NCBI GenBank assembly: GCA_030615625.1
Contig: JAUWYX010000002.1
Coordinates: 11,995-75,994, forward strand
Length of the DNA: 64,000 nt
Source of the DNA: Dehalococcoidia bacterium
Lineage (GTDB): Bacteria > Chloroflexota > Dehalococcoidia > GIF9 > AB-539-J10
Direction of reading: 5' to 3'
The translations under genes and the position numbers were made by a program. A model generated the notes under the pieces. That model did no database searches, was not told the origin of the DNA, and saw only the letters and a program-made list of their open reading frames with translations. The first letter of the stretch is position 1. Each line of letters opens with the position of its first letter. This document shows, piece after piece, positions 4,109 through 64,000 of this stretch.

Positions 4109-4484
4109 ATCTTAAGGGTAACTCACTTCAATCAACTGCACAATCACCCAAAAGTATCAATTTGATTAGAAAATGGTACTGGGAAAAAAGTCCTGGATTG
4201 GTAAAATTGGTAAGAAAGGTTAAGTTAGGTATATTGACTTCCTTTTGAAAAAGTGCTACTCTTATACATATTATTCCCATAAGTATTATGAATAATCTAC
4301 GCAAAGGAACACTAAGAGAGCGATTGCGTAAGTTCGCGGGAGTGCGAGTTGTGTGGTCGGGGAAAGCTGATGGCGGGCAAATGCATGTGTAAGGGAGGAT
4401 AGGCCGAAAGTTCTGTTGCCGTTTTATGTGTGAGGAGGCAGTGAAGCTGAGCCTGTAGCTGGTCGCTTGGGCTCGGTGGAGCTA

Positions 4485-4527
4485 ATAGCGAAACCGACCT
4501 TAAAGGTTAGTTTCGCTTTTGTGTTTA
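4485..4527 (+). terminator. Hairpin plus U-tract in the leader immediately upstream of the regulator gene (possible attenuator)
   Basis: AGCGAAAC..ACCTT-AAGGT..GTTTCGCT extended stem followed by TTTTGTGTTT, ending about 10 nt before the ATG at 4537. About 400 bp of untranslated leader precedes it. Confidence 0.3.
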
Positions 4528-4536
4528 GTGAAAGGG

Positions 4537-46315: not shown

Positions 46316-46336
46316 TCTACGCCTCCTGTACAGCTC

Positions 46337-46469
46337 GACATCGTCGCATTAGATTATAACTGCTCAAATTCTCCTTGTCATTGCGTCCCCTAATTTGACC
46401 GTCTCCCCTAGCTAATGCTAAACTATTTTCGGGCAGCGTAGCTCAGGGGTAGAGCAGAGGACTCATAAT
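46337..46469 (+). repeat. Direct repeat DR1: copy of the tRNA(CAU) upstream region plus tRNA 5' half (through the anticodon)
   Basis: 133 bp, about 98% identical to 53638-53771. 46433-46469 = GGCAGCGTAGCTCAGGGGTAGAGCAGAGGACTCATAA. Identity ends exactly after CATAA in the anticodon loop. Confidence 0.8.
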
Positions 46470-46748
46470 TCTAAGCTAGATGTCCCAAATGGTCCCTTTA
46501 CCTATAAAATAGAGCCTTTGTGTCAATTACCAAAACCCCGTTTTGCTCGTGAAGTCCCGTTATGTCCCAACCCATCCCAAACAATTTAACGCCAAAATAA
46601 CGCCAATTTTTCAGGTATGGCCTGAAGCTAACGGAACGACAATAGCGATAATACCATAGCAATAAAAACAACAATGATGATAACAACGATAATATCTAAA
46701 TGTGATATGAAATTTTCGGCTAGGGATTGACGTAGCGCTAAGTTTTAC

Positions 46749-49700: not shown

Positions 49701-50126
49701 CATTTTGTTGATAGTGCCACCATAGTCGAGAACTTTATGGATTAGGATCTCAAAGACCTCATCCATGATGGAGTAGATTTTCTCGTGGCCGAGTTTCTCG
49801 GAAAGTGGGGTAAATCCCTTCATGTCACAGAACATAACAGTAACCTGCTTGCGCTCACCTTCGATTTTGTCTCTTTGAGCTAGGATCTTCTCGGTGAGCC
49901 CTCTAGGCAGGTAACGCTGGATCTTCTCCAGTTTCTCGTCAAAAGAGAGGCCTCTGGGAGTCTGTTCGAAGGGAACTGTCAGATCGTGGCCGCACTCACC
50001 ACAAAATCTATCCCTGGGAAGGTTTTCAGAGCCACACTGAGGGCATATCTGCAAAAGCTTTGCACCGCACTCGTGGCAAAACTTCCTCGTCTCAGGATTT
50101 TCCGCTTGGCAATTAGGGCATTTCAT
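46749..50126 (-). CDS. Multidomain STAND-type protein: double zinc ribbon + class III adenylyl/guanylyl cyclase + AAA/NB-ARC-like NTPase + TPR array
   Basis: N-terminus CPNCQ..CHECG..CPQCG..CGECG; cyclase core VTVMFCDMKGFT...GDGVMALFGAP; P-loop GEAGVGKSRL; about 500 aa of TPR-like helical repeats. Confidence 0.8.
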   Translation of the reverse strand: MKCPNCQAENPETRKFCHECGAKLLQICPQCGSENLPRDRFCGECGHDLTVPFEQTPRGLSFDEKLEKIQRYLPRGLTEKILAQRDKIEGERKQVTVMFCDMKGFTPLSEKLGHEKIYSIMDEVFEILIHKVLDYGGTINKMTGDGVMALFGAPRALEHAPQRAIRSALAIQREMTRFSNRLKSESGIDPIKIRIGINTGPVVVGSLGNDLRVEFTAMGDTVNLASRMEDLAEPGTTYVTEETFKVTEGLFRFEALGERQVKGKEAPVKAYRVIATSTRRARFDVSAEWGLTPFVGRERELELLLDGFERAKAGRGQAFSIMGEAGVGKSRLLYEFRKAIANEDATFLEGRCLSYSRGVAYHPVIDLLKSNFDIRESDEDYRVRDRVKEGLKLLGADEANTLPYLLELLSVKDSGIDNISMSPEARKDRILEAVKRVILKGAELRPLIMAIEDLHWTDRSTEDTLKYWLDTISGSRVFLIFTYRPEFVHTWGGRSYHSQVTLNRLSNRESLAMVAHLLGTEEIAGDLEELILQKTEGIPFFIEEFMKSLKDLEIIERKDSGYFLTRDVNDVTIPGTIQDVIMARVDSLPEAAKGVLKTGSAIEREFSYELMKRVTGISEQELLSHLSALRDAELLYERGIYPQSTYIFKHALTREVVYDSIMTKRRKKLHLDIGDAIEEVYKDNLDQHYAVLAEHYIAGESYEKGAEYCRLVGRKAERAGAFNDAIAYSEKRIDCLDKLPQTEDVQRKIVAARTAVGLYHIQMGHPFEAKEAVDPIVDLALELGYKRRVSQIYTIMGSYWYHAEEDFPKAFKYLEDALKMAEELSDILSLAQANFWLGLALSWSCKYERALYHMEKTLQINVAGNSLWGISVQKSMLSAFVYDFQGRIGLGYQTSDEALRLAEESGDIYSRACGYTFHGYSCYCKGFLERAEEHLLKGIDFAEGIDLPSVFSLGYLWLGDTYFDMGEYERSQDCYKKAISRLEQNRLFPSSLNMCKIASARTRVINNEMDVDLEALYRYEAENNWRIYDGWMPRYIGEILLNIDEKHISEAEDWVKKAIEADKRNGMMFHLGKDYTAYAGLFKRKGNTPKAKENLKQAIEIFKECGAAGWVEKAEKELKGLSRKK

Positions 50127-50447
50127 TGTTTATCTCCATAAATCAAAAAGGATTCTTTTAATTGGCTTTCCAATAATTTGATTATACTCCCAAGAAACCT
50201 CAAATAGAATACATCACAAGAGAACAAGATGAGAATAGAAGCAATACATCAAAGATAGAATAGACCACCCATACCAATAAAAACAGCAATGACCGATAAT
50301 GGCAAAAGTTGCTCTCTCAGCGACAACCCTAAAAGAATGAAGGGTTTCCAAAATACCTAAAATTGAATGGAAAATCAAAATTAACAGCCTATGGCGGACG
50401 AAGGGGGGGTGAGGTGAATCACTGGATATACCATTACTAATGGGTGA

Positions 50448-50475
50448 TTGACAGCAAAGAAAACGACGCTATACT
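50448..50475 (+). promoter_or_regulatory. Sigma70-like promoter (TTGACA-16-TATACT) upstream of the DUF4382 gene
   Basis: TTGACAGCAAAGAAAACGACGCTATACT. Confidence 0.35.
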
Positions 50476-50576
50476 GTAATCTGGGAGGGAAGTTCAAATA
50501 CCAATATCTGGATTCCAAGTAATCTCCTACGACCAAAATCCACAAGACTAGACAGTTTTGAATTTCAAAAAAGAGC

Positions 50577-51149
50577 ATGCAAATCAAACCATTCCCTTTA
50601 GTGTTGATTATTCTGGCGGTGCTGACTGTAATAGGATTAGTTTATAAGATTCCGGAACAAGCACTGGGAACAGGAACCTTGAAGCTATACCTTTCCGATG
50701 CGCCGCTAGACGCTGAAGATGTTACAGGTGTTTATATCACTATCAATGAAATTCAATACCACCTAGATAGTCAATGGATAACGTGCGAAGAATTTAAAGG
50801 CCCTCAAATATATAACTTATTGGAATTAACCGACGGAAATTCCGCTTTGTTGGGTGAGTTGACATTACCTGCCGGGAATTACAATCAAATTCGCTTTATA
50901 CTGGATATTCCAGAAAAGGGCTCATATCCGGCAAATCCAGGCTGCTATATTGAATTTGCTGATAACTTCACTGCGCCTCTCTTCGTACCGAGTGGTGGAG
51001 ACACAGGGTATAAAGCGATAGGCTACTTCGAAGTACCTGTTAATGGAACTGTGGAGGTTACTGCAGATTTTGATGTTCGTAAAGCTGTGGTTGTAGCTGG
51101 TTCTTCGTACATCCTAAAGCCAACAATCAAGCTGATAGTCAACTACTAA
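50577..51149 (+). CDS. DUF4382-like secreted/lipoprotein
   Basis: Signal/TM then GTGTLKLYLSDAP...NYNQIRFIL pattern resembling DUF4382. Confidence 0.45.
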   Translation: MQIKPFPLVLIILAVLTVIGLVYKIPEQALGTGTLKLYLSDAPLDAEDVTGVYITINEIQYHLDSQWITCEEFKGPQIYNLLELTDGNSALLGELTLPAGNYNQIRFILDIPEKGSYPANPGCYIEFADNFTAPLFVPSGGDTGYKAIGYFEVPVNGTVEVTADFDVRKAVVVAGSSYILKPTIKLIVNY

Positions 51150-51524
51150 GCTGGAAGCATCCGTGGCTTACTCAACTGTAACCTAAAGTTTGGATTTTGT
51201 CTGATTTGGTTTCAGGTATTTTAGCGTGTTTTTAAGTGCTTTTATTCCCTTTAACTGAAGCTAATAAATCTTTTTCTTAAAGTTAAAATGAGGAGTAAAT
51301 TGTGCGGGCCTGGTGATAAGAGCGGGCACCATCGCCCAAACCAAAGGGCACACCCCTTCTTGATATTAGGATACCTGTCTCTGACTTATTTGAATTTTCA
51401 GAGTAATCAAAGGGGTTATCAGGTTCCTGAAGGCTTTCGGAATCCTGAGAAAACACACTTCTACATCTGTGTTAATAGAGTTTAATATGTGAATAGCTGG
51501 CTAGCAAAGATGGTTCTGCTTATT

Positions 51525-51959
51525 TCATTCATACCCGAGCTTCGGTGAAAGTGGGACGGCACTTCGCATGTAGGTTCCACTTCCCCAGGCAATTTCTCGA
51601 CTATCTGAATCAACCAACTTTGATTGTGCGATAAATAGGCGCTGTGAACGGTGAATAACCTGCCCAATCGCCTTTATCTTCCCCTGTGAAATAGGACGAG
51701 TAAGATATATGTTGAAGGAGACGGTTAAGACGAAGACGTCATTCACCAGCGAGTTCACTGCAAAAAAGGCAGCGTCATCGAGAGCCTTAAAATATACCGA
51801 CCCATGCACAGTACCGGCTGAGTGAAAAAAATCTTGGCGCACAACGATAATCACCTCCGCATACCCTTCATCCACGCAAATTGTCGGCATATAATACCTA
51901 TTTGTTGGCGCAAATGCATACATGTGCTCTAGCCTTCGGTAATGTTCTTCTTTGTTCAT
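51525..51959 (-). CDS. PaaI/4HBT-family hotdog thioesterase
   Basis: FFHSAGTVHGSVYFKALDDAA core. Confidence 0.6.
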   Translation of the reverse strand: MNKEEHYRRLEHMYAFAPTNRYYMPTICVDEGYAEVIIVVRQDFFHSAGTVHGSVYFKALDDAAFFAVNSLVNDVFVLTVSFNIYLTRPISQGKIKAIGQVIHRSQRLFIAQSKLVDSDSREIAWGSGTYMRSAVPLSPKLGYE

Positions 51960-52549
51960 CTTCCAGCTATCTTCCCTATCTCATTATCATTATATGGCCT
52001 TTTTGCCTCATATGGAAGAGTTACAAAGCTAGAAGTCGCTTTGATGGATTTATTCCATTTATTCAGTCCTAAAAAAAAGGGGATTTATCGAGTTTCTCAA
52101 GTCTATAAAAAAGGGGAAACAAAGCTGAAATGTCCAAAAAGTTTAATTCCTTGAGTCCATAAAAAAGGGCCTATGGCGATGCAACTGCAGACACTAAAGA
52201 TAAGATAGACCACCATAGCAATAGAATCAAGGCGCTAATAGCAACGACAATATCCTTCCAGAAGTGAAAAACGAAAATCTAACCTAGCTTTGGAATATAT
52301 CGTTTTTATTGGTGAAATATGATGCTTTTATTATGGTCTTATGGGTAAAGATGGCTTGCACCCCAAAGCTAAATAAAAGGATATGTTGTGATAATTGAAG
52401 CTAAAATGAGGGGGGAAATTGTGTTGAGGGAAATTGTTAGACGATTATTCCCCGGTGTCAAGCAAATCTTTGAGTAGAGTTTAGTTTATAGCGATTCGTT
52501 AGTGTCTCTTCAGGGGGCGTGTTTAATGTGGCATGGTCACAATACAACA

Positions 52550-53158
52550 TTACCAGTTTGCGTAGCAGACCACGGGAATCTCCCGAAAGTGTGCGCAGAT
52601 GTAGTAATCACCGTTCATGGTGATGGTGGTTGAGGCAGCATTGACATTGGCAATGGTATCCACATCGCCAGTCCACCTGGCAAACTTATAACCACTATCT
52701 GGTTTTGCCACGAGGTTGACCACTGTTCCCTCTTCATATATGAAGAATCTCCCTTCTCCAGGGGTGGTTACTGAACCATGAGCTGGTCCGATGATGTTCA
52801 GGCTGTACTGGACAGGCGGAAGTACCTCAAAGTCAGCCATTATGGAATAGTCGCCATTCACGGTAATGATGGTCTCGGAGGCACGAACATTGTCAACAGT
52901 GTACACATCTCCAGTCCAGCGTACAAATTGATAGCCACTGTCTGGGGTAACATTCAAGCTTACCACTGTGCCAGCGTCATAGGTAAGAATCGATTTTCCA
53001 GGGATGGTTACATTATTAACGGTAACTACGCCTCCGGCCGTACTGTCGATAGTGAGGGTAAGAGATTCGCCACCATTGCCATCATCACCACTGCCGCCAC
53101 AGCCTACCATCCCGACAATAAAGACTACCGTAATCAAAAAGACGCTAACTCTTTTCAT
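52550..53158 (-). CDS. Lipoprotein with two divergent InlB B-repeat-like domains
   Basis: Lipobox MVGCGG. Two roughly 85-aa repeats each ending ..PDSGYxFxRWTGDV..V.....T.IT.NGDY. Confidence 0.6.
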   Translation of the reverse strand: MKRVSVFLITVVFIVGMVGCGGSGDDGNGGESLTLTIDSTAGGVVTVNNVTIPGKSILTYDAGTVVSLNVTPDSGYQFVRWTGDVYTVDNVRASETIITVNGDYSIMADFEVLPPVQYSLNIIGPAHGSVTTPGEGRFFIYEEGTVVNLVAKPDSGYKFARWTGDVDTIANVNAASTTITMNGDYYICAHFREIPVVCYANW

Positions 53159-53393
53159 CTATATATCCTTCAAGTTTTATTGTATCACTAGCGAAGGAAG
53201 TGTCAATACGCCTCTCCACTCTGCTACCTCATATATGCCGTCTTCACCCGAAATAGAAGAATTCCAAAGCTAGAAGTCGTTTTTGATGGATTTATTCAGT
53301 TTTTTCAGTCCTAAAAAAAGGAAAACAGGGCTAATACCAACGATGATATAATCGTACTTCTACCCATAAGGGTGGAGATATGGGGAAAGTTCA

Positions 53394-53637
53394 ATTCAGG
53401 TCCCAGCCGCCGACATTACACTTCCCGTAATCGTTCCATCCCACGGCGACCACGGTGCCGTCGGACTTAAGCCCCACTGTGTGCTCAATGCTTGCGGCGA
53501 CCTGGATGATGTCTGACCAGCTACCGACATCGCACTGCCCGTAGAGATTGTCTCCCACGGCGACCACCGTGCCGTCGGACCTAAGCCCTACCGTGTGATA
53601 CCCTCCTGCGGCGACCTCGGTAATGTCTGTCCAGCCG

Positions 53638-53650
<13 letters not shown>
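53394..53650 (-). pseudogene. 5'-truncated fragment of an RCC1-like repeat protein gene
   Basis: Minus-strand translation ..DVGGWTDITEVAAGGYHTVGLRSDGTVVAVGDNLYGQCDVGSWSDIIQVAASIEHTVGLKSDGTVVAVGWNDYGKCNVGGWDLN*. There is no start codon; an in-frame stop sits immediately 5' within DR2. Confidence 0.5.
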
Positions 53651-53806
<156 letters not shown>

Positions 53807-54029
53807 CTTATTGTTTCACTCATAGCGATACTGGTAGGGTGAACGCCACAAACCTAAGTCGCTTATTTTATTTGGTTATTAATATTAATGAGATAGACAT
53901 CACTCTCTGTTTTCTAATGCCCCTTTTCATGTCATGGAAAAATTCAAACATTCTAAATGAATTTACAAAACCCCTAATGCTTGCTATAAACTAGTTTTGA
54001 TGATAATGTTGGTTGCTTAAACTTAAATA

Positions 54030-55784
54030 TTGATGAGTAAGAAAATGCTAAAGAAAAGAGTAGCTAATATAATTTTGATTACAATATGTTTCTCTGTATT
54101 ACTCTTTTCTGCCTGTAATGGTGAGATCAAGAATCCTAATACCTTTATCATAGCGGTAACTGCCGATATTGCCAGTTTAGATCCCGCCTATGCCTATGAT
54201 ACTTCAAGTTCTGGGCAACTAGAAAACATTTATGAAACACTAATTAAATTTCATGGCAATAGTACAAGCGAGTTTATTCCATTGCTGGCGACAGATTGGA
54301 CGATTTCTGAAGACGGAAAAACCTATAGATTTAAGATTCGTGATGGAGTAAGTTTTCATAATGGAAATCCATTAACCCCTGAAGATGTGGAATATTCATT
54401 TGAAAGGGGGATGGTTCAAGATTACGCCCTTGGACCACAATGGATGTTTTTTGAACCCCTTTTTGGTTTGGGGAATTACACCTCTCGAACCGACAGTGGT
54501 CTGATCCCGCTTGAAGAGATCAAGAATAAAGTAGAGGTCGATGGCCAATGGGTACAATTCAATCTGGCTACCTCATACGAACCGTTCTTACAGATTCTTG
54601 CCTCTTCTTGGGGTTCTATAGTTGATATGGATTGGTGTATAGAAAATGATGATTGGAATGGAACTGAGGAATCATATGAAGCTTTGAATAACCCTGTCCC
54701 TGGTGGCTCTCCAATCCATTCGATATCCTGCGGTACTGGCCCGTTCATGTTAGAGCTTTGGGAACCAGGAGTTCAAATAATGTTAGTAAGAAATGATAAC
54801 TATTGGGGTGCGCCAGCCAGTTTTGAAAGAGTTATCACCCAAATAATTGACGAATGGGGCACCAGAAGATTGATGCTAGAATTAGGTGACGTTGATTGTG
54901 CTATTGTTCCAAGTGAACAAATCCAACAAATAAAAGAAATGCCAGGAATCTTAGTTTATGAAAATGTATCTACGTTACTCAATCAAGCATTTTTCTTCCA
55001 ATTTGATATTGATTCTACCAGCACATTAATCGGTAGTGGCCAGTTAGATGGCAATGGTATACCCATGAATTTTTTCAGCGATATTGATGTACGCAAGGGC
55101 TTTGCTTTTGCTTTCGATTGGGATACTTATATTGATGATGCAATGGCAGGTTATGGGGAGCAAATATCTTCACCGATGGTCAAAGGCATACCTTACTATA
55201 AACCCGACTGGCCAAGTTATGAACTGGATCTGGTAGAAGCAGAGGAGCACTTGAAAGCGGCTTGGGATGGAGTACTATGGGAAAATGGTTTTGAAATGAC
55301 ACTTGTATATGCATCAGGAGACATCACGGGAAAGATTGCTTGTGAAATATTGCAAAATAATCTATTTGAGATCAATCCACTATTTAAAATAAATATTCAG
55401 TTAATGGGGTGGCCAACCATACTTAGTGAGATGGTGTTAGGACGTTTACCTATGTATGTAAATGGTTGGCAAGCTGACTATCCTGATCCCCACAATTTCG
55501 TCTTTCCTTATATGCATAGTAAAGGTACATTCGCACAAGCACAGCGATATAGTAATGAAGTAGTAGATGATCTTATTGAACAAGCAATCTCCTCAAGTAG
55601 CCATTCAGAAAGGCAAATACTTTATAATCAGATAGCAGAATTATATTATAACGAAGTTCCTAGTATCATGATATCTCAAGTATTGGGTGTCTTTTTCTTT
55701 CGAGACTGGATACAGGGTTTTGTTTACAACCCAATAAGACCAGGATATGAAATGTATGCATATTATTTAAGTAAAGGATACTAG
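54030..55784 (+). CDS. ABC transporter substrate-binding lipoprotein, family 5 (peptide/nickel type)
   Basis: Lipobox LLFSAC. SBP_bac_5-like sequence. Strongly AT-rich relative to the rest of the window. Confidence 0.65.
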   Translation: MMSKKMLKKRVANIILITICFSVLLFSACNGEIKNPNTFIIAVTADIASLDPAYAYDTSSSGQLENIYETLIKFHGNSTSEFIPLLATDWTISEDGKTYRFKIRDGVSFHNGNPLTPEDVEYSFERGMVQDYALGPQWMFFEPLFGLGNYTSRTDSGLIPLEEIKNKVEVDGQWVQFNLATSYEPFLQILASSWGSIVDMDWCIENDDWNGTEESYEALNNPVPGGSPIHSISCGTGPFMLELWEPGVQIMLVRNDNYWGAPASFERVITQIIDEWGTRRLMLELGDVDCAIVPSEQIQQIKEMPGILVYENVSTLLNQAFFFQFDIDSTSTLIGSGQLDGNGIPMNFFSDIDVRKGFAFAFDWDTYIDDAMAGYGEQISSPMVKGIPYYKPDWPSYELDLVEAEEHLKAAWDGVLWENGFEMTLVYASGDITGKIACEILQNNLFEINPLFKINIQLMGWPTILSEMVLGRLPMYVNGWQADYPDPHNFVFPYMHSKGTFAQAQRYSNEVVDDLIEQAISSSSHSERQILYNQIAELYYNEVPSIMISQVLGVFFFRDWIQGFVYNPIRPGYEMYAYYLSKGY

Positions 55785-55977
55785 TAATTTAATAATAGTA
55801 TACAGAAAATTAGTAAACAACCTGATACTTTCCGAATCCACGATAGTTTAGTTTGACACTTCTTCCTTTATAAAATCCGCTCGCTGTCATTTATTTCTTT
55901 AGTGGTTTCCACTCAACAGATTGTGAGTGTTCAGTTAATTGTGTTATTGTTTGGAATAGCATTGTTTCGGAGGGCAA

Positions 55978-56145
55978 GTGAAGTTAGCTAGAATCATTGC
56001 ACCATTTAGTCTTAGCGCATTTCTTTTTATCCTGTCATATGTGTCCCTCAAAGATATTGGAAGTGGCTTTTACTCAATACTGCTAATGGTAATCGGGGTA
56101 GTACTCGTAGTTGTTGGCATTGCAGCTATTTTCTCAAATAAGTGA
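55978..56145 (+). CDS. Small membrane protein (55 aa)
   Basis: GTG start with a GGAGGG SD; two hydrophobic helices. Confidence 0.3.
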   Translation: MKLARIIAPFSLSAFLFILSYVSLKDIGSGFYSILLMVIGVVLVVVGIAAIFSNK

Positions 56146-56175
56146 ACCCTTTTCGAGACTGATCCTCTATCCCCT

Positions 56176-56199
56176 CTGGTTCAAATCCAGCCACTACCA
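56176..56199 (+). repeat. tRNA 3'-end remnant (att-like) a
   Basis: CTGGTTCAAATCCAGCCACTACCA versus tRNA CTGGTTCAAATCCAGCCGCTGCCA (2 mismatches). Confidence 0.65.
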
Positions 56200-56259
56200 G
56201 AAATTCAGTCCACTTGACAACCTGGGGAGATGAAACGTAGTATGCTGGAAAAACAATAA

Positions 56260-56574
56260 TTGGAGGTGTTGAAGATGGTCAATATTATACCGATTACGAT
56301 TGTTGTTATTGGTGTTGCATTGGTAGTTGTAGCATTATTAGTTTGGAGGAGGCAAAAAGAGGAGAAGCTAGAAAGAATAAGCAATGAACAGAAGAAAGCA
56401 TTCTTCGCACAATGGATAATAGGGATTGTTTTAGCATTAACAGCTGCTATTTTTATGTTTGATGGCGATATCCTGGGAGAAAATACCACAGGTATTTCCA
56501 CAGCCCTAGGGATTATTGGAATTTGCCTGATAGCAACTTCCAATGTTAACCTGCTATCTCTCAAGCGTAAATAA
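56260..56574 (+). CDS. Small membrane protein (104 aa, 3 TM)
   Basis: Hydrophobic helices; AGGTG SD. Confidence 0.4.
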   Translation: MEVLKMVNIIPITIVVIGVALVVVALLVWRRQKEEKLERISNEQKKAFFAQWIIGIVLALTAAIFMFDGDILGENTTGISTALGIIGICLIATSNVNLLSLKRK

Positions 56575-56822
56575 AGCAGATTAGCGAACCAAACAAGAAT
56601 CATCCCACAGAACAGCGTCTAAACAACTATTTAAAGTAAAAATCTTGCCCCATTTACTCGTGCCAATTGATATAACTTATAGATAGGGTAAAGATACGGC
56701 TAGATGAACCAAGGGCTTAGCAGACCGTTGGCTAGTTTACCTCCAAAATGCTTAGTATTGATTTTGGTTGTATAATGAAGTAACAACTTTAGAGTAAATA
56801 CTGTAATCTAAGAGAGGGAGCA

Positions 56823-57431
56823 GTGGTTCACAGTACACTTTGCGTAACGGTAGAAAGGGCCGTATCCCAGGTAGTATCTGATTTTCAGAAGTATCCAAAA
56901 CGTTTCTGGAACGAAAGAGACATACACTGGAGTCTCTTTTACTATCTAAAACATCAACGAGTCTCTGAAGAAGCCTATCCGACCGAGTTAATACGTGCTG
57001 AATTACCCACACGTAAGGTATTTCCCGGCAAGAAACCAGCCAGAGGCCATTATGATTTAGTGATATTGGATGCCGAGTCTTACTACAAGCCAGAAGTACA
57101 GAATATGAAAGCCCAGACTCCATGGAAAGAATTCCTTGAATTAGTTGAAATTGCTGTGGCCATAGAGGTCAAATTATGGTTGAACCGACTAAGCCCGGAG
57201 AACATGGCAAAACGAGTAGACTGGGATATAACAAAACTGACTGATAAACCAAACAACGTACAAAATGCATATTTTCTAAACTTCGTTCAGTTAAACTTCA
57301 AATCTGACTATATGATGCAATACTACCAAGAGCTACGTGACTATCTAACCACGAAAAAGCAACCAGGCTTGAGTATTTTGTGTATCCCGAGTGACCCTCA
57401 AATACAATCTGTGTCAGACAACTGGCTCTAG
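56823..57431 (+). CDS. Hypothetical protein, possible PD-(D/E)xK nuclease fold
   Basis: GHYDLVILD ... AIEVK spacing resembles a D..(D/E)xK motif. Confidence 0.35.
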   Translation: MVHSTLCVTVERAVSQVVSDFQKYPKRFWNERDIHWSLFYYLKHQRVSEEAYPTELIRAELPTRKVFPGKKPARGHYDLVILDAESYYKPEVQNMKAQTPWKEFLELVEIAVAIEVKLWLNRLSPENMAKRVDWDITKLTDKPNNVQNAYFLNFVQLNFKSDYMMQYYQELRDYLTTKKQPGLSILCIPSDPQIQSVSDNWL

Positions 57432-57540
57432 TCTCGGCTCGCTCAGTGTTTCCAAAACGAGTGTGGAGATCGATTTAATCCACACTTTTCCTCTGAATAA
57501 ATGCCTTTTTATAGGTGGTCAATTTGACAAAACTGATTAG

Positions 57541-58590
57541 TTAAATATGCTCCTGGTAATTAGCAGTTCCCCCGACTACATTAACAATTAACTTTATCAC
57601 CTTAACCAGTATTGCGATTCCTACCCCAACTGAAATACAAATCAAGAATATCCTGACGCCTAAATAAGTGGCATCAGCTGCAGTAGTGCTAGGTATTACA
57701 CTGAAGTCGAAAGGAAAGACAAATAGAAGGGTTAAAATCGTCCAAAGTGAAAATGCATTTATAACGATATGAATCATTTCACGCAGTATATACCTATCAA
57801 GGATAATCAAAATAATATGACCGATCACAGTTATAATTAGAGTTGTTGTAAGAATCGGTAGCCATAGATTGATGTCTTCTGTAAAGAACGGATATCTTAT
57901 CCATGTAGTAATGCCGCCTACTGTTTCCGAATGATAATAGGCTACGTATTGATTAAAAAAGTTGAAGAATATTAATAAAGCGATACTCCAGGCGATGGCA
58001 AAAGCGGAAGCTGTTATTCTTCCACTTCTACTTTTAAAATGAGCGTCTATTTTATCTCCGATTCGTTTACCTGAATCTGCAGCGGGGGGTGGTGTAGGTG
58101 CCACTGCCTCTGACTCTGCTGTTGGTTCTGAGGGTGGAGGTTCAGAGTATTCACCTGTTACCCCTGATGAAGCGACCATCTTCTCAGCAACATCACCAGC
58201 CCATGGTAGTTTATACCACTCACCACTAGAAGCTTTGACTATCATTATTATCCAAACAATGAACCCTATAATTCCTATAATTGAAGAGAAAGCAACACCG
58301 ACCACCGGTATCAAACCAAGTATAATCCCTGCAGCTGTGAGGGTGCCAAACGCAACAATTGACTGTGCCGCGTGGAAACGAACAAATTTGTTTCTCTGCT
58401 CTAAAACGAGAAAGATGATGCCGCTTATCCATACGCCAACATAGCACAATAATCCGGCAATATTTGGCGATAACCCTGTACTTGTGCCTGCTGGCGCTGT
58501 CAGTTTCTCTCGTTCTATCTTTTCCCGTGCCTCAATCCGCGCCTTCTCTTCCTCATAGATTCTCTTCTTCTCTTCTGGTGTTAATTCCAT
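57541..58590 (-). CDS. DUF4870-like membrane protein with N-terminal coiled-coil and long C-terminal polytopic domain
   Basis: GLLCYVGVWISGIIFLVLEQRNKFVRFHAAQS matches the DUF4870 signature. Pro/Glu-rich linker. Confidence 0.5.
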   Translation of the reverse strand: MELTPEEKKRIYEEEKARIEAREKIEREKLTAPAGTSTGLSPNIAGLLCYVGVWISGIIFLVLEQRNKFVRFHAAQSIVAFGTLTAAGIILGLIPVVGVAFSSIIGIIGFIVWIIMIVKASSGEWYKLPWAGDVAEKMVASSGVTGEYSEPPPSEPTAESEAVAPTPPPAADSGKRIGDKIDAHFKSRSGRITASAFAIAWSIALLIFFNFFNQYVAYYHSETVGGITTWIRYPFFTEDINLWLPILTTTLIITVIGHIILIILDRYILREMIHIVINAFSLWTILTLLFVFPFDFSVIPSTTAADATYLGVRIFLICISVGVGIAILVKVIKLIVNVVGGTANYQEHI

Positions 58591-58781
58591 ATCAACCCCC
58601 TTGATATTGGCGTCGTAGGTTCAGAATAGCCATCCATGCTTTTGTTGTCAATACCACCGTTTAATTCAACATTTCTCATATCAAGAAGATGATATCTTAC
58701 ACCTCTGCAAATGCTACCACATAATTATGGCCATAAATCTTGGCGCACTTGGGGCAGGTTGTGTAATAGAAATAATACCTT

Positions 58782-59189
58782 TTAACTGTTTTTGCCTTTT
58801 TGGTTTACATATTGATCAATTTCTTTAATCCATTTTGGAACGGCGTTATACGAACCATCGAAAACTTTAGTGATATATGTTCCTGATAGTTTGACATTTT
58901 CGGCATTCGGGATTTCTTTTGTCACATTGATATATAGTTCACCTTTCCAGGGTGATGATTCGGTAGCAAGCATGATAAAGTCCTTGATATCTGGATTTGC
59001 TCCTGCGTCTTCAATTTTCTTCCACATCCTTCCGACTGTTTTACCGAATGCTCCGGGTAGCGGCATATGCATGAATTGCATCATAGTGTCTTTGACAAAG
59101 AGCTTGTCTTCCCACGTTATTTCTTTATCATGCCATGGTTCAGGATCAAACTTAGGACAGCATTGCGTTTCACTATCATTCTTTATCAT
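58782..59189 (-). CDS. Hypothetical protein (135 aa)
   Basis: ORF with no confident family assignment. Confidence 0.4.
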   Translation of the reverse strand: MIKNDSETQCCPKFDPEPWHDKEITWEDKLFVKDTMMQFMHMPLPGAFGKTVGRMWKKIEDAGANPDIKDFIMLATESSPWKGELYINVTKEIPNAENVKLSGTYITKVFDGSYNAVPKWIKEIDQYVNQKGKNS

Positions 59190-59210
59190 ATTTCAAGCCC
59201 TCCTTTTATT

Positions 59211-59233
59211 TGGTTCAAATCCAGCCGCTGCCA
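59211..59233 (+). repeat. tRNA 3'-end remnant (att-like) b
   Basis: TGGTTCAAATCCAGCCGCTGCCA, a perfect match to the tRNA T-arm/acceptor 3' strand. Confidence 0.7.
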
Positions 59234-59270
59234 TATTCTGCAATTGGGACAGGATGGATCCCCCCTGTGC

Positions 59271-59693
59271 TCACTGCCCATTGGTCAACCTGGCCTGTAC
59301 TTCTGCAATCAGGTCTTGAACTGTGATACGTAATACTGTTTGGCCTTGCTTTAAGGTGTCAACGAGAACATCATAGTCCTCGTAGAAATAGACTGTCTTC
59401 CCATCCGTGAGCACCACGAAGGATGCTAAAGCCTTGGATTGACCTCGTATAAAGCGGAAGCTCGACCGTATCCGCTGTAGAGGCAGCGAACTATCCAACA
59501 ATTTCATCAGTATCTTTAATTCGAAAATGTCTTCTACGGAATAGAGACGGCGCGAACCTCTTCCGGATGCTGCTCTCAGACTCGGGCTCACCAGGCCTGT
59601 CTTATCCCAATACACAAGCTGGCTATAGGTAGCGCCGACCACATGTGATACCTCTGAAGTACGGAAGGATATAGGTTTTTTTCTACGCGGCAT
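59271..59693 (-). CDS. MerR-family HTH protein
   Basis: FRTSEVSHVVGATYSQLVYWDKTGLVSP is the MerR HTH. About 90-aa C-terminal domain. Confidence 0.65.
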   Translation of the reverse strand: MPRRKKPISFRTSEVSHVVGATYSQLVYWDKTGLVSPSLRAASGRGSRRLYSVEDIFELKILMKLLDSSLPLQRIRSSFRFIRGQSKALASFVVLTDGKTVYFYEDYDVLVDTLKQGQTVLRITVQDLIAEVQARLTNGQ

Positions 59694-59751
59694 TGCGAAT
59701 TCCAGCCAATATAATATGAGTCATATCATTATATCACTTGCAGCTTAGACA

Positions 59752-59775
59752 CTGGTTCAAATCCAGCCGCTGCCA
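59752..59775 (+). repeat. tRNA 3'-end remnant (att-like) c
   Basis: CTGGTTCAAATCCAGCCGCTGCCA, then CTACC as in remnant a. Confidence 0.7.
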
Positions 59776-59792
59776 CTACCGCATTTCTTCTT

Positions 59793-59820
59793 GATAGCTG
59801 GAATTAGAGTCGGAAGGAAG
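59793..59820 (+). repeat. 28-bp perfect repeat (copy 1; copy 2 at 63253-63280)
   Basis: GATAGCTGGAATTAGAGTCGGAAGGAAG at both places, 17 bp after att remnant c and upstream of the flavodoxin gene. Confidence 0.6.
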
Positions 59821-59943
59821 CAGGCGATGATTTCGGTGTCGTGGCCTGCTTCGACGGCATTGATTTGGCACTACTAACAGGCCAAGGCTATGAGGCACTG
59901 CAGAGAGTCGGAGCACGAAATTAGAGTACGCTCTCTTAACTGG

Positions 59944-60114
59944 TCAGCCCAGTGCCCGGCCTAGAAAGTACGGCCAGACTACTATGGCAAGTATAATCTG
60001 CCACCAAACCAGACCGACATAACCGATTGTAAATAGCCAGCCGACGAACCAAATAGTGAATGCCAAAGCCGGGGAGCCGCGGTTTCTCCAATGTTTTCTC
60101 TTTTCCTCTGCCAT
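59944..60114 (-). CDS. Small two-TM membrane protein (56 aa)
   Basis: AAGGAG SD 7 nt upstream of the ATG. Preferred over the overlapping ORF-track 59936..60172. Confidence 0.4.
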   Translation of the reverse strand: MAEEKRKHWRNRGSPALAFTIWFVGWLFTIGYVGLVWWQIILAIVVWPYFLGRALG

Positions 60115-60196
60115 GTTTTTCTCCTTTTCTAAGATAATCTATTCTTGATTTGATGACTTTACTTAATAGCAAAATGGGTTTTTCACGGCCATAACT

Positions 60197-60991
60197 TCAC
60201 GGAGATGATATTTCAGGCTCAGTCGTAGCTGCCCTTTTTCTCCAGCGGAGCCACAGGGCCCAAGCCGTTACCAGCACGGCTAGCACGGCAATATAGATTT
60301 CCACATGAAGGATTGTAAAGCGCCCTGCGTAAAACAAAATTACGCTATAGTTTAGTAAGCCGTGCAGGACAGAGGCTATGAGATAGAACTGCCATCCCCA
60401 GCCCTTAGCCAGGCCGTACCCGGCCAGGGCGGAAAAAGCAATATGAGCGGCTACCGTAAAGAACCTCTCCCAAAATCCACCATAGATCAGTGCCATGAAG
60501 CCGCCACTTTGCACTGCTTCCCAGGTCACCCCTGAGGCGAAGATGTCATTGAGTGCCCACTGCGCTTCGAAGATGCCAAATCCAGCTCCGGCCACAGCGC
60601 CGATAGCGAGTCCCAGCTTGGGGTCAATGTTCTTGCCGCTCCGCCGCCACCAGACGACCACCGGCACCAACTTCGACCCTTCTTGGACCAGTCCGCTAAG
60701 GAGTATTGATGGTATCGCCGCCAGAAGAATCCAGCGCGTCAGGACTTCCTGGCTCCAGAAATGGCTCAGCGCTTGTCCAGCCCAAACCTGGAGGGGAATT
60801 TGAATAAAGCTAGCAGCGGCCAGGGTTAGAAAGGCACTGCTTACGAGGACCGCCCAGAGCCAGGGTTTCTTAAAGAGCGGCGGCCGGTAACCGGCCAGCC
60901 AGACCGCACCGAAGGCTATAGCCAGACCAATCCCCAGGGCGCTGGGGTTTTGAAAGAAAGATTTGAAAAATATGACCATGTAATCTATCAT
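60197..60991 (-). CDS. CPBP-family intramembrane metalloprotease (CAAX protease-like)
   Basis: Polytopic, with a VQEGSKLVP...W block and FxxxH/LHGLLN motifs resembling the CPBP motifs. Confidence 0.5.
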   Translation of the reverse strand: MIDYMVIFFKSFFQNPSALGIGLAIAFGAVWLAGYRPPLFKKPWLWAVLVSSAFLTLAAASFIQIPLQVWAGQALSHFWSQEVLTRWILLAAIPSILLSGLVQEGSKLVPVVVWWRRSGKNIDPKLGLAIGAVAGAGFGIFEAQWALNDIFASGVTWEAVQSGGFMALIYGGFWERFFTVAAHIAFSALAGYGLAKGWGWQFYLIASVLHGLLNYSVILFYAGRFTILHVEIYIAVLAVLVTAWALWLRWRKRAATTEPEISSP

Positions 60992-61141
60992 GGACTTCTC
61001 CTACACTTTAAACTGGTTCTTATCCAATTCATCGTAAGTGTATCCTTCGACGCCATTTAGCATCCACAACATTATACCTGCATGTGAAATAAAAAAATAT
61101 ACCCTTGAGCAGGAACGTCCAGGGGCACATTGCAGGTTCTG

Positions 61142-61179
61142 ATAAGGCTTTGGTCGGTGGTTCAAACCCAGCCGCGGCC
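61142..61179 (+). repeat. tRNA 3'-half remnant (att-like) d, extending from the anticodon loop
   Basis: ATAAGGCTTTGGTCGGTGGTTCAAACCCAGCCGCGGCC versus tRNA ATAAGCCTTTGGTCGCTGGTTCAAATCCAGCCGCTGCC. Confidence 0.65.
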
Positions 61180-61256
61180 GCTTTTATTTTTCACAGTTGA
61201 ATCCTTAACCAAAACAACAAATGCTATTTACAGGCAATTGAACCTTCTTTACCGAT

Positions 61257-62669
61257 TTAAACGAGCTCCACAGTATCTTTGTATTGGGGGACTTTTGTGG
61301 TCCACCCGGTCCTCTCGTTCAGGACATTCGCAAAGCTATTGGCTGCTTTTCCTTCCCCGTGAGTGACAAATACACAGCGCGGCGGGACACGAATGTCAGC
61401 CAGCCAGGTTAGTAATCCATCACGGTCGGTGTGGGCAGAAAAACCATCGATTTTTTCAATGTGTACTTTCACCGGATGTATTTGCCCTAAGAGACGGATT
61501 TTCTTGGCACCATTCAGCAATATTCTGCCCGGCGTTCCCTTCGCTTGATAGCCGACGAATAATATTGTGCTTTCTGCCCTCGTGATGTTGTTGACAATAT
61601 GGTGCTTTACACGGCCGCCGGTTACCATACCGCTACCAGCTATGATGATACTGCTTTCCTTTATGTTGTTAATGGCTTTAGACTCTTCCACACTCTGTAC
61701 CATTTTGAGGTTTTCAAAACTAAAACAGGAATTACCCTGGCGCAGACGTTGCATCATCTCTTTATCAAAGAGTTCAGCGTTGTGTTTAAATACTTTTGTA
61801 ATCCGTATTGCCATAGGGCTATCCAGAAAGACAGTTAAAGGTGGAATTTCTTTACGTAAAAATAATTCGTTCAGGTGATACAGTAGTTCCTGGGACCGCT
61901 CCAAAGCGAAACTGGGAATAATGATGTTGCCCCTGGCGCTTACCGTCCTGTTGATACAATCGCGTAACTGTTTTTGAATGTCAATGTTCTTGTGTTCTTC
62001 GTGAGTACGGTCGCCATAAGTTGACTCTATAACTATATATTCGGCCTCATCGAAAAGAGTCGGGTCGTTTATTATGGGGCGGTCAGGCTCGCCGATATCA
62101 CCGGAAAAAATTACTCTGTGGTTCTTTCCATCCTGCTGGATATTTACACTTATGGCTGCCGCCCCAAGTACATGGCCCGCTTCATAATAACAACCTTCGA
62201 CATTGCTGTTAATTCCGACACAACTCAGATATTCTGTGGCAGAAAAATGCGGCTGGACTGCTTCGGCATCTTCTACGGTATAAAGAGGTATTTCAGGAAA
62301 AGGACCACGGCGACCTTCCCTTTTATGGCGTTTTGCCTTAAATATAGCGTCTTCTTCCTGCAGCTTTGCGGCATCAAGAAGGATAATCTGGGCTATCTCA
62401 GCCGTCGCCTCAGTGCAGTATATCTTGCCTTTGTAACCGTCACGTATCAGTTTAGGTAAAAGCCCACAATGGTCAAGATGGGCATGAGTCAAAAAAACAG
62501 CATCAATTGACTGAGGGTCAAATGGAAATGGCTGCCAGTTTCTCTCCTGGTACTTCCGCTCCTGGTACAGCCCACAATCTATAAGCACACGGGTATCCTG
62601 ACTCTCTAAAAGGTAGCAGGAACCTGTGACATTCCGCGCTGCACCCAGAAATGTCAGCTTAGCCAGCAT
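61257..62669 (-). CDS. MBL-fold beta-CASP RNA-metabolising hydrolase (RNase J/CPSF-like)
   Basis: LTHAHLDHCGLLP (HxHxDH), beta-CASP motifs. Confidence 0.7.
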   Translation of the reverse strand: MLAKLTFLGAARNVTGSCYLLESQDTRVLIDCGLYQERKYQERNWQPFPFDPQSIDAVFLTHAHLDHCGLLPKLIRDGYKGKIYCTEATAEIAQIILLDAAKLQEEDAIFKAKRHKREGRRGPFPEIPLYTVEDAEAVQPHFSATEYLSCVGINSNVEGCYYEAGHVLGAAAISVNIQQDGKNHRVIFSGDIGEPDRPIINDPTLFDEAEYIVIESTYGDRTHEEHKNIDIQKQLRDCINRTVSARGNIIIPSFALERSQELLYHLNELFLRKEIPPLTVFLDSPMAIRITKVFKHNAELFDKEMMQRLRQGNSCFSFENLKMVQSVEESKAINNIKESSIIIAGSGMVTGGRVKHHIVNNITRAESTILFVGYQAKGTPGRILLNGAKKIRLLGQIHPVKVHIEKIDGFSAHTDRDGLLTWLADIRVPPRCVFVTHGEGKAANSFANVLNERTGWTTKVPQYKDTVELV

Positions 62670-62752
62670 AGATGATGCGACTCCTTAATAATTTATTTGA
62701 CCTGCAAATTCCGCACGGCATATTCCCAGCTATTATACCTTAAAGTTTCATT

Positions 62753-62781
62753 ATAAGCCGGTTCGAATCCAGCCGCTGCCA
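62753..62781 (+). repeat. tRNA 3'-half remnant (att-like) e
   Basis: ATAAGCCGGTTCGAATCCAGCCGCTGCCA (anticodon-loop ATAAGCC retained, variable loop deleted). Confidence 0.6.
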
Positions 62782-62794
62782 GTTAGCTTTACTT

Positions 62795-63181
62795 CTAAAT
62801 ATCTTCAACTTTTCTTTTTCTGATTAGAACAATATGTACTGTAACCCCAATAGCAATACAAATTAGCACTATCCTGATAACTATGTTCTGTACTCCAAAA
62901 GTTATACTGAGTCCGATAGTTAGCCAAAGTAGAAGGATGGTAAATACCTTTATTTTTATGGGTATTCCTCTGCCTTCAATGTAGTTCCTGACATAGGCTC
63001 CAAATATTCTGTTGTTTATAAGCCATTGATAAAACCGTTCAGAGCTCCGCATGTAACAAGCAGCGGCGAGTAAGAGAAATGGGGTTGTAGGTAGAATCGG
63101 GATAAAAATACCGATAATCCCTAATCCTGTGCATAAAGTTCCTGCTCCGATTAGAAGCCTTCTCTTTGCTGTTGTCCGCAT
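62795..63181 (-). CDS. YbaN/DUF454-family inner-membrane protein
   Basis: GIIGIFIPILPTTPFLLLAAACY signature. Confidence 0.6.
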   Translation of the reverse strand: MRTTAKRRLLIGAGTLCTGLGIIGIFIPILPTTPFLLLAAACYMRSSERFYQWLINNRIFGAYVRNYIEGRGIPIKIKVFTILLLWLTIGLSITFGVQNIVIRIVLICIAIGVTVHIVLIRKRKVEDI

Positions 63182-63312
63182 CTATATTTATAATACAGCC
63201 CCTTTTGATTTTATGATATCCTCAAACATTCATTTTAGCTATACAATATGTATCACAAGTAGATAGCTGGAATTAGAGTCGGAAGGAAGTAGCATCGTTG
63301 AATGAATCGGGG

Positions 63313-63792
63313 CTAGCTTGAATACTCTTTTATAGCCTCCTTAGCCCTGGCTATGATTTCCTCGTCAGGCACTCTGTACGATGTTATTGCAAAAGAGCCT
63401 ACTACCTTGCCCTGGCTTTTCTCTATTTTAGCCGTTATGTTCTCCAGAGCTTTCTCTGCATTGTTGCCACCCATGGTAAAGAATGGAATAATACTCCGGC
63501 CTTCGAAATTTGTCTTGTATATAAATGAGTTAATAGCCGGTGCCGGTCTTGAAGCCCAGATTGGAGAGCCAATAAATATCCTTTCATATTGTTTTAAATC
63601 GACATCTACGGGATTTATCTTACTCCCCCTGTTCATGAAAGCTGCGAAGCTGCCACTCAAATAGACGAACGGCATGGGTATGGGCCTTCTCTCCTCAATT
63701 TCCAATAGCGTGGCATTCAGGGCTTCGGCGATTACCTGAGATACCAGCCTCGTTTTACCTGTCAAAGAATAATAGACTACCAGCGATTTCAT
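63313..63792 (-). CDS. Flavodoxin-family protein
   Basis: MKSLVVYYSLTGKTR (FMN-phosphate-binding T/SxTGxT). Confidence 0.65.
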   Translation of the reverse strand: MKSLVVYYSLTGKTRLVSQVIAEALNATLLEIEERRPIPMPFVYLSGSFAAFMNRGSKINPVDVDLKQYERIFIGSPIWASRPAPAINSFIYKTNFEGRSIIPFFTMGGNNAEKALENITAKIEKSQGKVVGSFAITSYRVPDEEIIARAKEAIKEYSS

Positions 63793-64000
63793 GCACTCTC
63801 CAAAGTATCTGTTTCTTAATTATACCTCACCGGTGGATAGGCTGATACATTAGGGAGGATATTACTGGGTCGGTCAGTTTTAGGATAGCTTGGGGCTTTA
63901 TCGGGGGATTGAGTGGAAATAGCCAGGAAGGCAGCACAGGCTAGGTGGGGTAAGTAGGTATATCCAAGTAACTGTGATTATGGGTGAGGGGTAATCGCAA

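Follow-up and report, generated by a model that had tools for sequence, protein, structure and literature searches.

A tRNA-Met gene of uncultured Dehalococcoidia as anchor of a probable accretion island of short gene units without integrases

Dehalococcoidia are abundant in sediments and aquifers and have small genomes with few known plasmids, and the ways in which they exchange accessory genes are largely unknown beyond the ssrA islands of cultured organohalide respirers. Here, we describe a tandem array of short gene units found downstream of a tRNA-Met gene in a stretch of 64,000 nucleotides (contig JAUWYX010000002.1 of assembly GCA_030615625.1; hereafter the window), which is part of the chromosome of an uncultured Dehalococcoidia bacterium. 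The single tRNA gene of the window, a tRNA-Met(CAT) at 53735-53807 on the plus strand, was identified with ARAGORN and Rfam (68 bits); it is of the elongator type by its G1-C72 pair, could be specific for Met or Ile2, and is taken here as the anchoring attachment site (attB) of the array. The remainder of the window is ordinary chromosome, with genes such as mfd, metK, ahcY and that of the CCA-adding enzyme.

The last 22 nt of the tRNA gene, GGTTCAAATCCAGCCGCTGCCA, occur at six sites in the window when up to three mismatches are allowed, and every one is on the plus strand. Besides the tRNA itself, these are the copies starting at 56178 (2 mismatches), 59212 (0), 59754 (0), 61159 (3) and 62760 (1). 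No match was obtained in 100 dinucleotide-preserving shuffles of the window, and no similar sequence is present in the window outside the tRNA and these five downstream copies. The first-pass annotation, made from the DNA letters alone, had described five co-oriented copies of the tRNA 3' end, which the scan confirms, and had pictured them as decaying outwards, which it does not, since the mismatch series outward from the tRNA (2, 0, 0, 3, 1) has no steady rise with distance. Two of the copies had also been said to reach the anticodon loop. This is clear for the remnant at 61139-61181, a 43-nt copy with substitutions, and plausible for that at 62753-62782, in which ATAAGCC is joined straight to GGTTCGAATCC with 10 nt absent, an arrangement also seen in its L012 orthologue. 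Over 58521-64000 the window is matched at 100% identity by an independent Logan contig (L001), so that an artefact confined to a single assembly can be dismissed.

The remnants delimit five units of 0.5-3 kb, all read on the plus strand and each closing with its own remnant (unit families are labelled U and F). The first unit (U10/F6, 53808-56199) contains a low-GC (guanine plus cytosine) SBP_bac_5 gene at 54030-55784 on the plus strand and a 55-residue membrane open reading frame (ORF), and ends in the remnant 56176-56199; members of its family are found in L006, L013+L046, L060, L156 and L160. The second (U2/F5, 56200-59233, with 35 family members) carries four genes, encoding a 132-residue ORF (56205-56603, minus), a 202-residue ORF (56823-57431, plus), a DUF4870 membrane protein (57541-58590, minus) and a PF20603 hydrolase (58782-59189, minus), the latter two assigned with Pfam, and the ribosome-binding site of the hydrolase gene abuts the terminal remnant (59210-59233). 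The third (U1/F1, 59234-59775, 54 family members) holds a lone gene for a MerR-family regulator at 59271-59693 on the minus strand, and its remnant lies at 59752-59775. In the fourth (U6/F4, 59776-61181), a conserved left-end motif at 59793-59823 is followed by genes for a 78-residue membrane protein (59936-60172, minus) and a PrsW-like protease, a 264-residue membrane protein (60197-60991, minus; Pfam), and then by the long terminal remnant 61139-61181. The fifth (U8/F9, 61182-62782, remnant 62753-62782) encodes a beta-CASP/MBL RNase at 61257-62669 on the minus strand, which is a conserved cassette of about 40 arrays. With the NCBIfam model of the type VII CRISPR-associated Cas14, this protein scored 412 bits, which is far short of the cut-off of 800, and with that of aCPSF1 it scored 317 bits.

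Beyond the last remnant, a DUF454 segment on the plus strand (62783-63261; gene 62795-63181, minus) starts with GTTAGCTTTACTTCTAAAT, the left end of a one-gene DUF454 cassette (U5) in other arrays, and its terminal remnant is absent here. It is followed at 63262-63292 (plus) by a second copy of the unit left-end motif, GATAGCTGGAATTAGAGTCGGAAGGAAG, which marks the place of an earlier boundary between units, now without its remnant. Next comes a flavodoxin-like gene (63313-63792, minus), a recurrent distal member of these arrays. The window has a mean GC content of 0.478, and its units lie between 0.33 (SBP gene) and 0.585 (PrsW-like gene). Pfam revealed no recombinase or transfer genes in the five window units, in agreement with the first impression of small units devoid of integrases, and bore out the cargo as then named (SBP_bac_5, small membrane ORFs with DUF4870 and PF20603, MerR, beta-CASP), except that the supposed CPBP protease is PrsW-like.

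The MerR protein had been considered a possible excisionase, on account of its helix-turn-helix type. It has 140 residues with a standard MerR_1 N-terminal domain and is 88-97% conserved; its nearest solved relative is the MerR-like Alr3614, and it has weak NCBIfam matches to FtsR and HspR. No excisionase family was matched, and the gene never adjoins an integrase, so that we rejected this role. The protein looks like an ordinary regulator, and we assign it no function in recombination.

The tRNA gene also carries a footprint on its 5' side, which the earlier account, centred on the 3'-side array, had missed. A 143-bp direct repeat at 46326-46468 and 53627-53771 (96% identical) brackets 7.2 kb, and consists of about 106 nt of the tRNA upstream flank followed by tRNA positions 1-37, the identity ending right after the anticodon loop CTCATAA. 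The left copy, on the plus strand, thus includes a 5'-half tRNA remnant at 46432-46468, and the right copy of the duplicated flank (53627-53734, plus) is presumably the promoter region brought along with a replacement 5' half. A 35-mer of the tRNA 5' half has exactly two sites in the window, where shuffles give an expectation of 0. The insertion between the repeats (46469-53626) encodes a STAND-type adenylate cyclase/AAA/TPR protein, a DUF4382 protein, a 4HBT thioesterase and a Flg_new_2 repeat protein (all by Pfam), together with an RCC1-repeat pseudogene fragment recognized by translation, and no integrase was found within its 7.2 kb. The last of these features is a GC-rich segment at 53391-53630 on the minus strand, formed by two 114-nt tandem copies (76-78% identical) with RCC1-like repeats of the type GxxHTVGLxSDGTVVAVG, and seems to be what is left of a gene for a repeat protein.

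This insertion is absent from relatives, where an AAA_33 gene abuts the tRNA; L117 carries the same left end, and L113 has a similar structure. In L098 an intact, different tyrosine integrase of 382 residues is located directly upstream of the tRNA, and a 42-residue fragment of it occupies the same place in L052. The 5'-side footprint and this integrase therefore indicate that the tRNA has been used from both sides, by two types of integrase.

To see how widespread the array is, we scanned one genome per species for exact matches to the 22-mer and obtained 89 stretches. Nearly all of them are from metagenome-assembled genomes of Dehalococcoidia, many with two to seven copies downstream of tRNA-Met within a few kb. 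Overall, the same array structure was recognized in about 110 related arrays, with up to nine remnants. In the reference-genome loci (612 kb, with adjacent blocks merged and oriented), 182 remnants are on the tRNA strand and 0 on the other when up to five mismatches are allowed. A second set, of 80 metagenome contigs (709 kb) picked solely because they encode the MerR protein, gave 282 remnants on the tRNA strand and 1 on the other, with arrays again reaching nine remnants, and the MerR gene lies downstream of tRNA-Met wherever the context sufficed to tell. The first-pass annotation had named a generic repeat, scattered away from tRNAs, as a finding that would refute it, and these counts show that the motif is no such repeat. 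The same 22-mer scan of viral contigs returned 1 match only. As a separate observation, a further tRNA(CAT) gene, distinct from the anchoring tRNA-Met and about 4 kb downstream of it, stands at a unit end in L092 (13843-13914) and L100 (8747-8818).

Cutting every array at its remnants yielded 298 units belonging to 97 families, and all five window units are in families present in other species, where they have different neighbours. The median unit length is 965 bp (interquartile range 542-2,274 bp), and 48% of the 298 units have exactly one ORF of at least 90 residues. Most genes (88%) are on the strand opposite to the tRNA and point towards it, so that the 5' end of a gene faces the remnant of its own unit; most remnants are just upstream of a minus-strand gene start, at a median distance of about 100 nt. 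Recurrent cargo includes adenine deaminase, a chagasin-type inhibitor, GNAT acetyltransferases, Fpg, dCTP deaminase and FMN reductase, as well as GyrI-like, HNH and NYN proteins and several DUF membrane proteins, and an IS1 transposase was seen twice. The Pfam scan of the cargo covered the 38 recurrent clusters, those with at least two members, as distinct from about 160 singleton ORF clusters. Neither the window units nor these 38 clusters contain a recombinase, primase or helicase, and no site-specific recombinase of any kind, the serine type included, is among the recurrent clusters; conjugation or mobilisation genes were likewise not found in the arrays. One IS1-family transposase gene, at 2124-2987 of L043 (oriented), is in a first unit of 4.4 kb and is the sole non-integrase gene of mobile DNA in the units, among the ORFs tested. 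Single ORFs of integrase size in 1.3-1.5-kb units of other arrays were also considered as recombinases and rejected, as by eye they are a peptidase, a multihaem cytochrome, an ion exchanger, NifS and the like.

The ends of the units are precise. When the MerR units of 11 species are aligned, they are homologous from the preceding remnant up to the final base of their own remnant, beyond which the sequences fall into distinct classes matching different right-hand neighbours. One class of neighbours starts with GATAGCTGGAATTAGAG, a conserved unit left end, which explains the 28-31-nt repeat at 59793 and 63262; another begins as does the sequence after the last remnant of the window (62782), namely with the left end of the DUF454 cassette. 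The same is seen over 1,141 pairs of units of the same family with different right neighbours: the commonest end of homology is at offset 0 relative to the end of the remnant, with 62% of the ends within -3 to +6, and on the left side the commonest start is at -23, which corresponds to the start of the preceding remnant. The block shared by 185 dereplicated remnants is 23 nt long, TGGTTCAAATCCAGCCGCTGCCA, and spans from the T-stem to the discriminator base, with 76-98% match to the tRNA per position inside it and 38-60% just outside. Besides this short class, some remnants extend to the variable loop or to the anticodon loop.

The order of the units differs between hosts. In the window it is U10-U2-U1-U6-U8. 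The MerR unit, U1, follows U2 in more than 15 arrays and precedes it in L050, L135 and L136; it follows U3 in more than eight arrays and precedes it in L107 and L111; and it precedes the SBP unit U10 in L060 and L160, with the opposite order in the window and in L156. These conflicts are replicated in independent assemblies. The DUF454 gene comes after U2 in some arrays, after U1 in another and after U8 in the window, and U1 alone has at least 11 different left neighbours, the tRNA itself included, and at least 13 different right neighbours. Such conflicts cannot arise through deletion between repeats.

Closely related arrays reveal where the changes occur. L129, L133, L139 and L146 are 98.5-99.5% identical over the distal units U2-U5-U4 and differ in their proximal units. 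L139 equals L146 plus one extra unit of 933 bp placed exactly at a remnant, and the proximal unit of the two is 91-93% identical, compared with 99.4% over the adjoining 4.8 kb on its distal side. The units beside the tRNA are those that turn over fastest. The comparison with relatives suggested at the outset thus confirmed that units vary among related genomes, in presence, absence and order, with the breakpoints at remnants.

We also searched for the enzymes that may have produced the array. A viral contig (L002), a prophage fragment with tape-measure and tail genes, ends in this tRNA, with the gene of a 303-residue PF00589 integrase directly against the 3' end of the tRNA. With an iterated profile of this integrase we searched the window, where nothing matched, and the loci of the relatives. 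Intact homologues of 326 residues are located directly 3' of the tRNA in L022, L023 and L027 (three species), and another intact homologue abuts a long remnant in L010+L056. A match in L172, at the head of a seven-remnant array, is cut by the contig end, keeps the HxxR motif and is probably intact. All other matches are C-terminal pieces of 40-60 residues. The intact integrase gives its best scores to XerA, XerC and XerD models, below their cut-offs, and has no arm-binding domain; the related integrases score only 35 bits (cut-off 265) and 22 bits (cut-off 435) with integron-integrase models, and far better with Xer models.

The integrase stubs form a subfamily of their own, NGGDSLMLQRLLGHTTLMMTNRYCQAVGCYDAIE. 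They start 16-20 nt past the tRNA or a remnant in L026, L099, L139 and L146, and about 90 nt past it in L014, and 116 of 116 database homologues of the stub have at most 105 residues. A split integrase gene of the SSV type, with the phage attachment site (attP) inside the gene, was considered and rejected, given that no N-terminal halves were found beside any remnant, that there are two junction classes, and given L172. Since the L172 gene is merely cut by the contig end, and since N-terminal halves were not found, we read the stubs as eroded integrases. A stub of the same subfamily was also seen at 10001-10249 of L173, among many tiny ORFs in a 20-kb stretch without the tRNA or a tRNA-Met remnant (up to six mismatches); it possibly belongs to an island at a different site, or to a lineage with a different tRNA sequence.

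In the window itself, the trace of such an enzyme is found at 63827-63912 on the plus strand, where the last codons of an array-type tyrosine integrase and the sequence downstream of it are 79-100% identical to the sequence after the integrase stubs of L106, L026 and L014. Past coordinate 64000, 1.2 kb could be recovered from L001. It contains an integrase C-terminal pseudogene with an in-frame TGA at about 64756-64887 (L001:290-450), some 0.76 kb past the window end. The initial statement that no integrase is present within 10 kb therefore holds for intact genes, with the trace and the pseudogene as its exceptions, and the proposed look beyond 64000 for a recombinase gave an integrase stub and a toxin-antitoxin pair, and no intact integrase. 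The latter pair consists of two co-oriented genes of 93 and 98 residues (L001:638-1224, about 63978-64564) and is ParE/RelE-like; its second gene has a weak match to ParE toxins (E 0.034), and L020 has the pair too, on the distal side of the flavodoxin gene.

The locus has an intact tRNA at one end, co-oriented repeats of its 3' end, and variable segments with breakpoints at the repeats, as expected of an accretion island. Co-orientation, synteny breaks at the remnants, and cognate tyrosine integrases at the site in a prophage and in relatives all agree with the proposal of the first-pass annotation that these are footprints of site-specific integration at the tRNA. The integrations are not a recent, strain-specific series, as most units are common to other species and have diverged from them as much as the core genes have; the array is old and for the most part inherited, and its turnover is concentrated at the tRNA end. 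We consider it likely that this is a long-standing accretion island at a tRNA attB which is still turning over, and in which units without integrases remain competent for recombination.

The following mechanism would account for these results. The tRNA-Met(CAT) gene would serve as attB for at least two kinds of elements with tyrosine recombinases. Those of the 3' side, with a small Xer-like integrase (about 300-330 residues, no arm-binding domain), would recombine within the TGGTTCAAATCCAGCCGCTGCCA block, and some of them further back, in the anticodon loop, giving rise to the long remnants. Each 3' insertion would rebuild the tRNA from the copy carried by the element, displacing the previous 3' end outwards, whereas elements of the 5' side would recombine in the anticodon loop and supply a replacement promoter flank and 5' half. 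Repeated insertion may in this way have produced units separated by co-oriented tRNA 3' remnants, from which the integrase genes would then have been lost save for C-terminal stubs, the cargo being kept as ordinary accessory genes. As each unit has an att-like site at both ends, single units or blocks could still undergo excision, deletion or re-insertion, the latter at the tRNA or a different remnant, through an integrase provided in trans by a newly arrived element or prophage or, less efficiently, through homologous recombination. Such recombination would yield shuffling, breakpoints at the remnants and the fastest turnover beside the tRNA. Of this account, the anatomy of the arrays, their distribution, the breakpoints, the conflicting orders and the decay of cognate integrases were seen directly, and the position of the crossover, the part of an enzyme in recombination at the remnants and its continuation in this genome are inferred from them.

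Several results weigh against a system that is still working. No intact recombinase was found in the 64-kb window or in the 1.2 kb beyond it, and for this reason current activity in this genome is unproven. Neither excised circles nor empty sites were observed, and metagenome assemblies can be chimeric at shared units. Conservation over the 185 remnants is uniform, with no extra conservation of the T-arm, and in the MerR alignment the remnant columns are only slightly more conserved than the adjacent intergenic DNA, so that we found no support for selective maintenance of the remnants. The cassette proteins are about 70-96% identical to the window copies, similar to the core genes upstream of the tRNA (86-97%), which indicates that much of the array is old and inherited, and could in effect be fixed. 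Finally, L021 lost a remnant by ordinary deletion and kept the gene order; gene order conserved without remnants is what the first-pass annotation had named as a second refuting finding, but here it is confined to the erosion of one lineage, whose relatives retain their remnants.

Several of these points would suit a fossil array, whose units were integrated once, in a common ancestor, and then passed on vertically with differential loss, by deletion between the direct repeats or by ordinary deletions, and in which nothing is mobile and mobilisation in trans never occurred. Cassette and core genes have diverged alike, the remnants decay uniformly as neutral DNA would, the L021 remnant went through ordinary deletion, nearly all arrays have integrase stubs only, and the order is partly conserved (F3-F1-F4 and U2-U1). 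Deletion cannot invert an order, however, and the conflicts of U1 with U2, U3 and U10, and the position conflict of p41, are between lineages and in independent assemblies. Near-identical arrays also differ by whole proximal units, the distal block being 99.4% identical and the proximal unit attached to it 91-93%, and intact integrases of the same superfamily are still at the tRNA in some relatives and in a prophage. We therefore regard a purely fossil array as unlikely.

Alternatively, the units could have been shuffled by RecA-dependent homologous recombination, for which the remnants would be short patches of homology. Direct repeats of 23-45 nt can support rare deletion and re-insertion over evolutionary time, most arrays are without an intact integrase, and no core of special conservation stands out from the uniform identity block. 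Yet repeats of 23 nt are at best close to the minimum length usually required for efficient recombination by RecA, and the creation of each remnant in the first place requires an attP with the tRNA 3' end, that is, a site-specific system. The breakpoints also fall sharply on the edges of the block, and units are gained preferentially beside the tRNA, as predicted for the use of attB by an integrase. We judge RecA as the main agent of the shuffling to be decidedly improbable.

That the 22-24-mers are instead a dispersed functional repeat (regulatory, terminator or RNA-processing) that resembles a tRNA end, among ordinary chromosomal genes, would fit the cross-species conservation of the accessory genes between remnants and the usual place of the remnants about 100 nt (median) upstream of minus-strand gene starts, but is largely refuted and has hardly any probability left, as the repeats occur solely downstream of tRNA-Met and on its strand (182:0 and 282:1 in the relatives, none elsewhere in the window), would read as tRNA antisense on the mRNA strand, coincide with synteny breaks, adjoin integrases and stubs, and end exactly at the discriminator base with many reaching the anticodon loop, which marks them as copies of the tRNA and not of a motif.

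Within the preferred interpretation of an accretion island that is still turning over, a stronger version can be put forward tentatively. The arrays may constitute a working cassette system, based on a tRNA and resembling integrons, in which Xer-like integrases from transient elements or prophages act in trans to excise, exchange and re-insert, at the tRNA or any of the remnants, modules without integrases, often with a single gene and down to 0.2-0.6 kb, whose sole site is a 23-nt mimic of the T-arm and acceptor end of tRNA-Met; we hold this to be possible, though somewhat doubtful. The suggestion that the units are cassette-like and mobilised in trans, made when only the window was considered, gains support from the recurrent units, their precise ends and their conflicting orders; mobilisation itself can only be inferred, from these orders and from the turnover beside the tRNA.

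Other observations were made in the window away from the array. A gene for an S-adenosylmethionine-dependent methyltransferase at 44148-44837, between ahcY and a PHP gene, is missing from L156, which is collinear in other respects (flanks 90-93% identical). A c-di-GMP-II riboswitch at 4425-4508 (61.5 bits, above the gathering score) is upstream of an ORF at 4519-5247. Self-comparison of the window gave three pairs of direct repeats (38691-38910/41537-41755, 12419-12528/13709-13818 and 51991-52077/53232-53319), which are 82-89% identical and 88-220 nt long, one pair flanking the Flg_new_2 gene.

In an entire uncultured clade, according to these results, tRNA-Met is a docking site used from both sides, where what accumulates is not a few large islands, but short modules with precise ends that recur in varied orders. 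If a simple Xer-like integrase does move these modules in trans by way of a 23-nt site, the arrays would amount to a compact cassette system of natural origin, with a shared pool of at least 97 cassette families for the plasmid-poor Dehalococcoidia; it would provide a parallel to integrons and tycheposons for the study of evolution, and a source of minimal parts for site-specific recombination. If the modules are not moved, the locus is still a well-resolved case of integrated elements that were stripped down and domesticated into chromosomal genes.

The closest described system is that of the ssrA islands of Dehalococcoides (McMurdie et al. 2011, PMC3146451), from the same bacterial class and likewise made of tandem units at the 3' end of a small structured RNA gene. 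These islands are bounded by direct repeats of about 20 bp of the ssrA 3' end, with insertion in the T-loop region, and were described as an old system that adds to strain diversity; about half have an integration module, and the others were suggested to be cis-mobilizable (PMC3146451). They differ from the arrays described here in the target (ssrA versus tRNA-Met), in the recombinase (a large serine module, DsiB/DsiA, versus an Xer-like tyrosine integrase) and in size, as they are of about 10 kb with rdhA genes, compared with a median of about 1 kb and usually one gene. Shuffling of units or conflicts of order are not described for them (PMC3146451), and the tRNA-Met locus has in addition an insertion on the 5' side.

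In Prochlorococcus, also a streamlined and plasmid-poor lineage, tRNA genes are the anchors of tycheposon islands (Hackl et al., bioRxiv 10.1101/2020.12.28.424599), with adjacent elements split only by partial tRNAs, with fragmented integrases and extra partial tRNAs from older events, and with cargo in the form of plug-in modules. A tycheposon brings a tyrosine or large serine recombinase of its own, often together with a replication module (primase, helicase); the units here have neither. Recurring single-gene units without integrases and with precise ends on both sides, as in our arrays, are not described in the passages of that preprint on which we rely. The units also resemble cis-mobilizable elements (CIMEs; PMC5704250, cited in PMC3146451), which occur in tandem at one attB and could be mobilised by the recombinase of a neighbouring or incoming element, as proposed here. 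The five window units have att sites on both sides and no recombinase or transfer genes, as CIMEs do. In contrast, CIMEs were defined for decayed integrative and conjugative elements and integrative mobilizable elements of Firmicutes and are usually several kb long, whereas the arrays here comprise at least 97 unit families, many of them only 0.2-1 kb in size.

The likeness to integrons lies in the mostly single-gene, co-oriented modules with one recombination site each, in the different orders of cassettes between hosts, and in the anchoring site: integron cassettes are added at one such site by a tyrosine recombinase that is not encoded by the cassette, which would have its parallel in these arrays. 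Unlike in integrons, there is no intI, attI or Pc beside the array and the integrases are Xer-like. The sites are not attC hairpins, but direct copies of 23-45 nt of the tRNA 3' end with sharp edges, and the genes point towards the anchor, whereas integron genes point away from the Pc promoter. In a full-text literature search, which was not exhaustive, we found no description of a tRNA-Met hotspot in Dehalococcoidia, nor is one mentioned in a recent comparative-genomics paper on Dehalogenimonas. What sets this locus apart from the known islands is the tRNA-Met target, the Xer-like integrase, the much smaller units, usually with one gene, the recurrence of units without integrases and with precise ends in conflicting orders, and the use of the tRNA from both sides.

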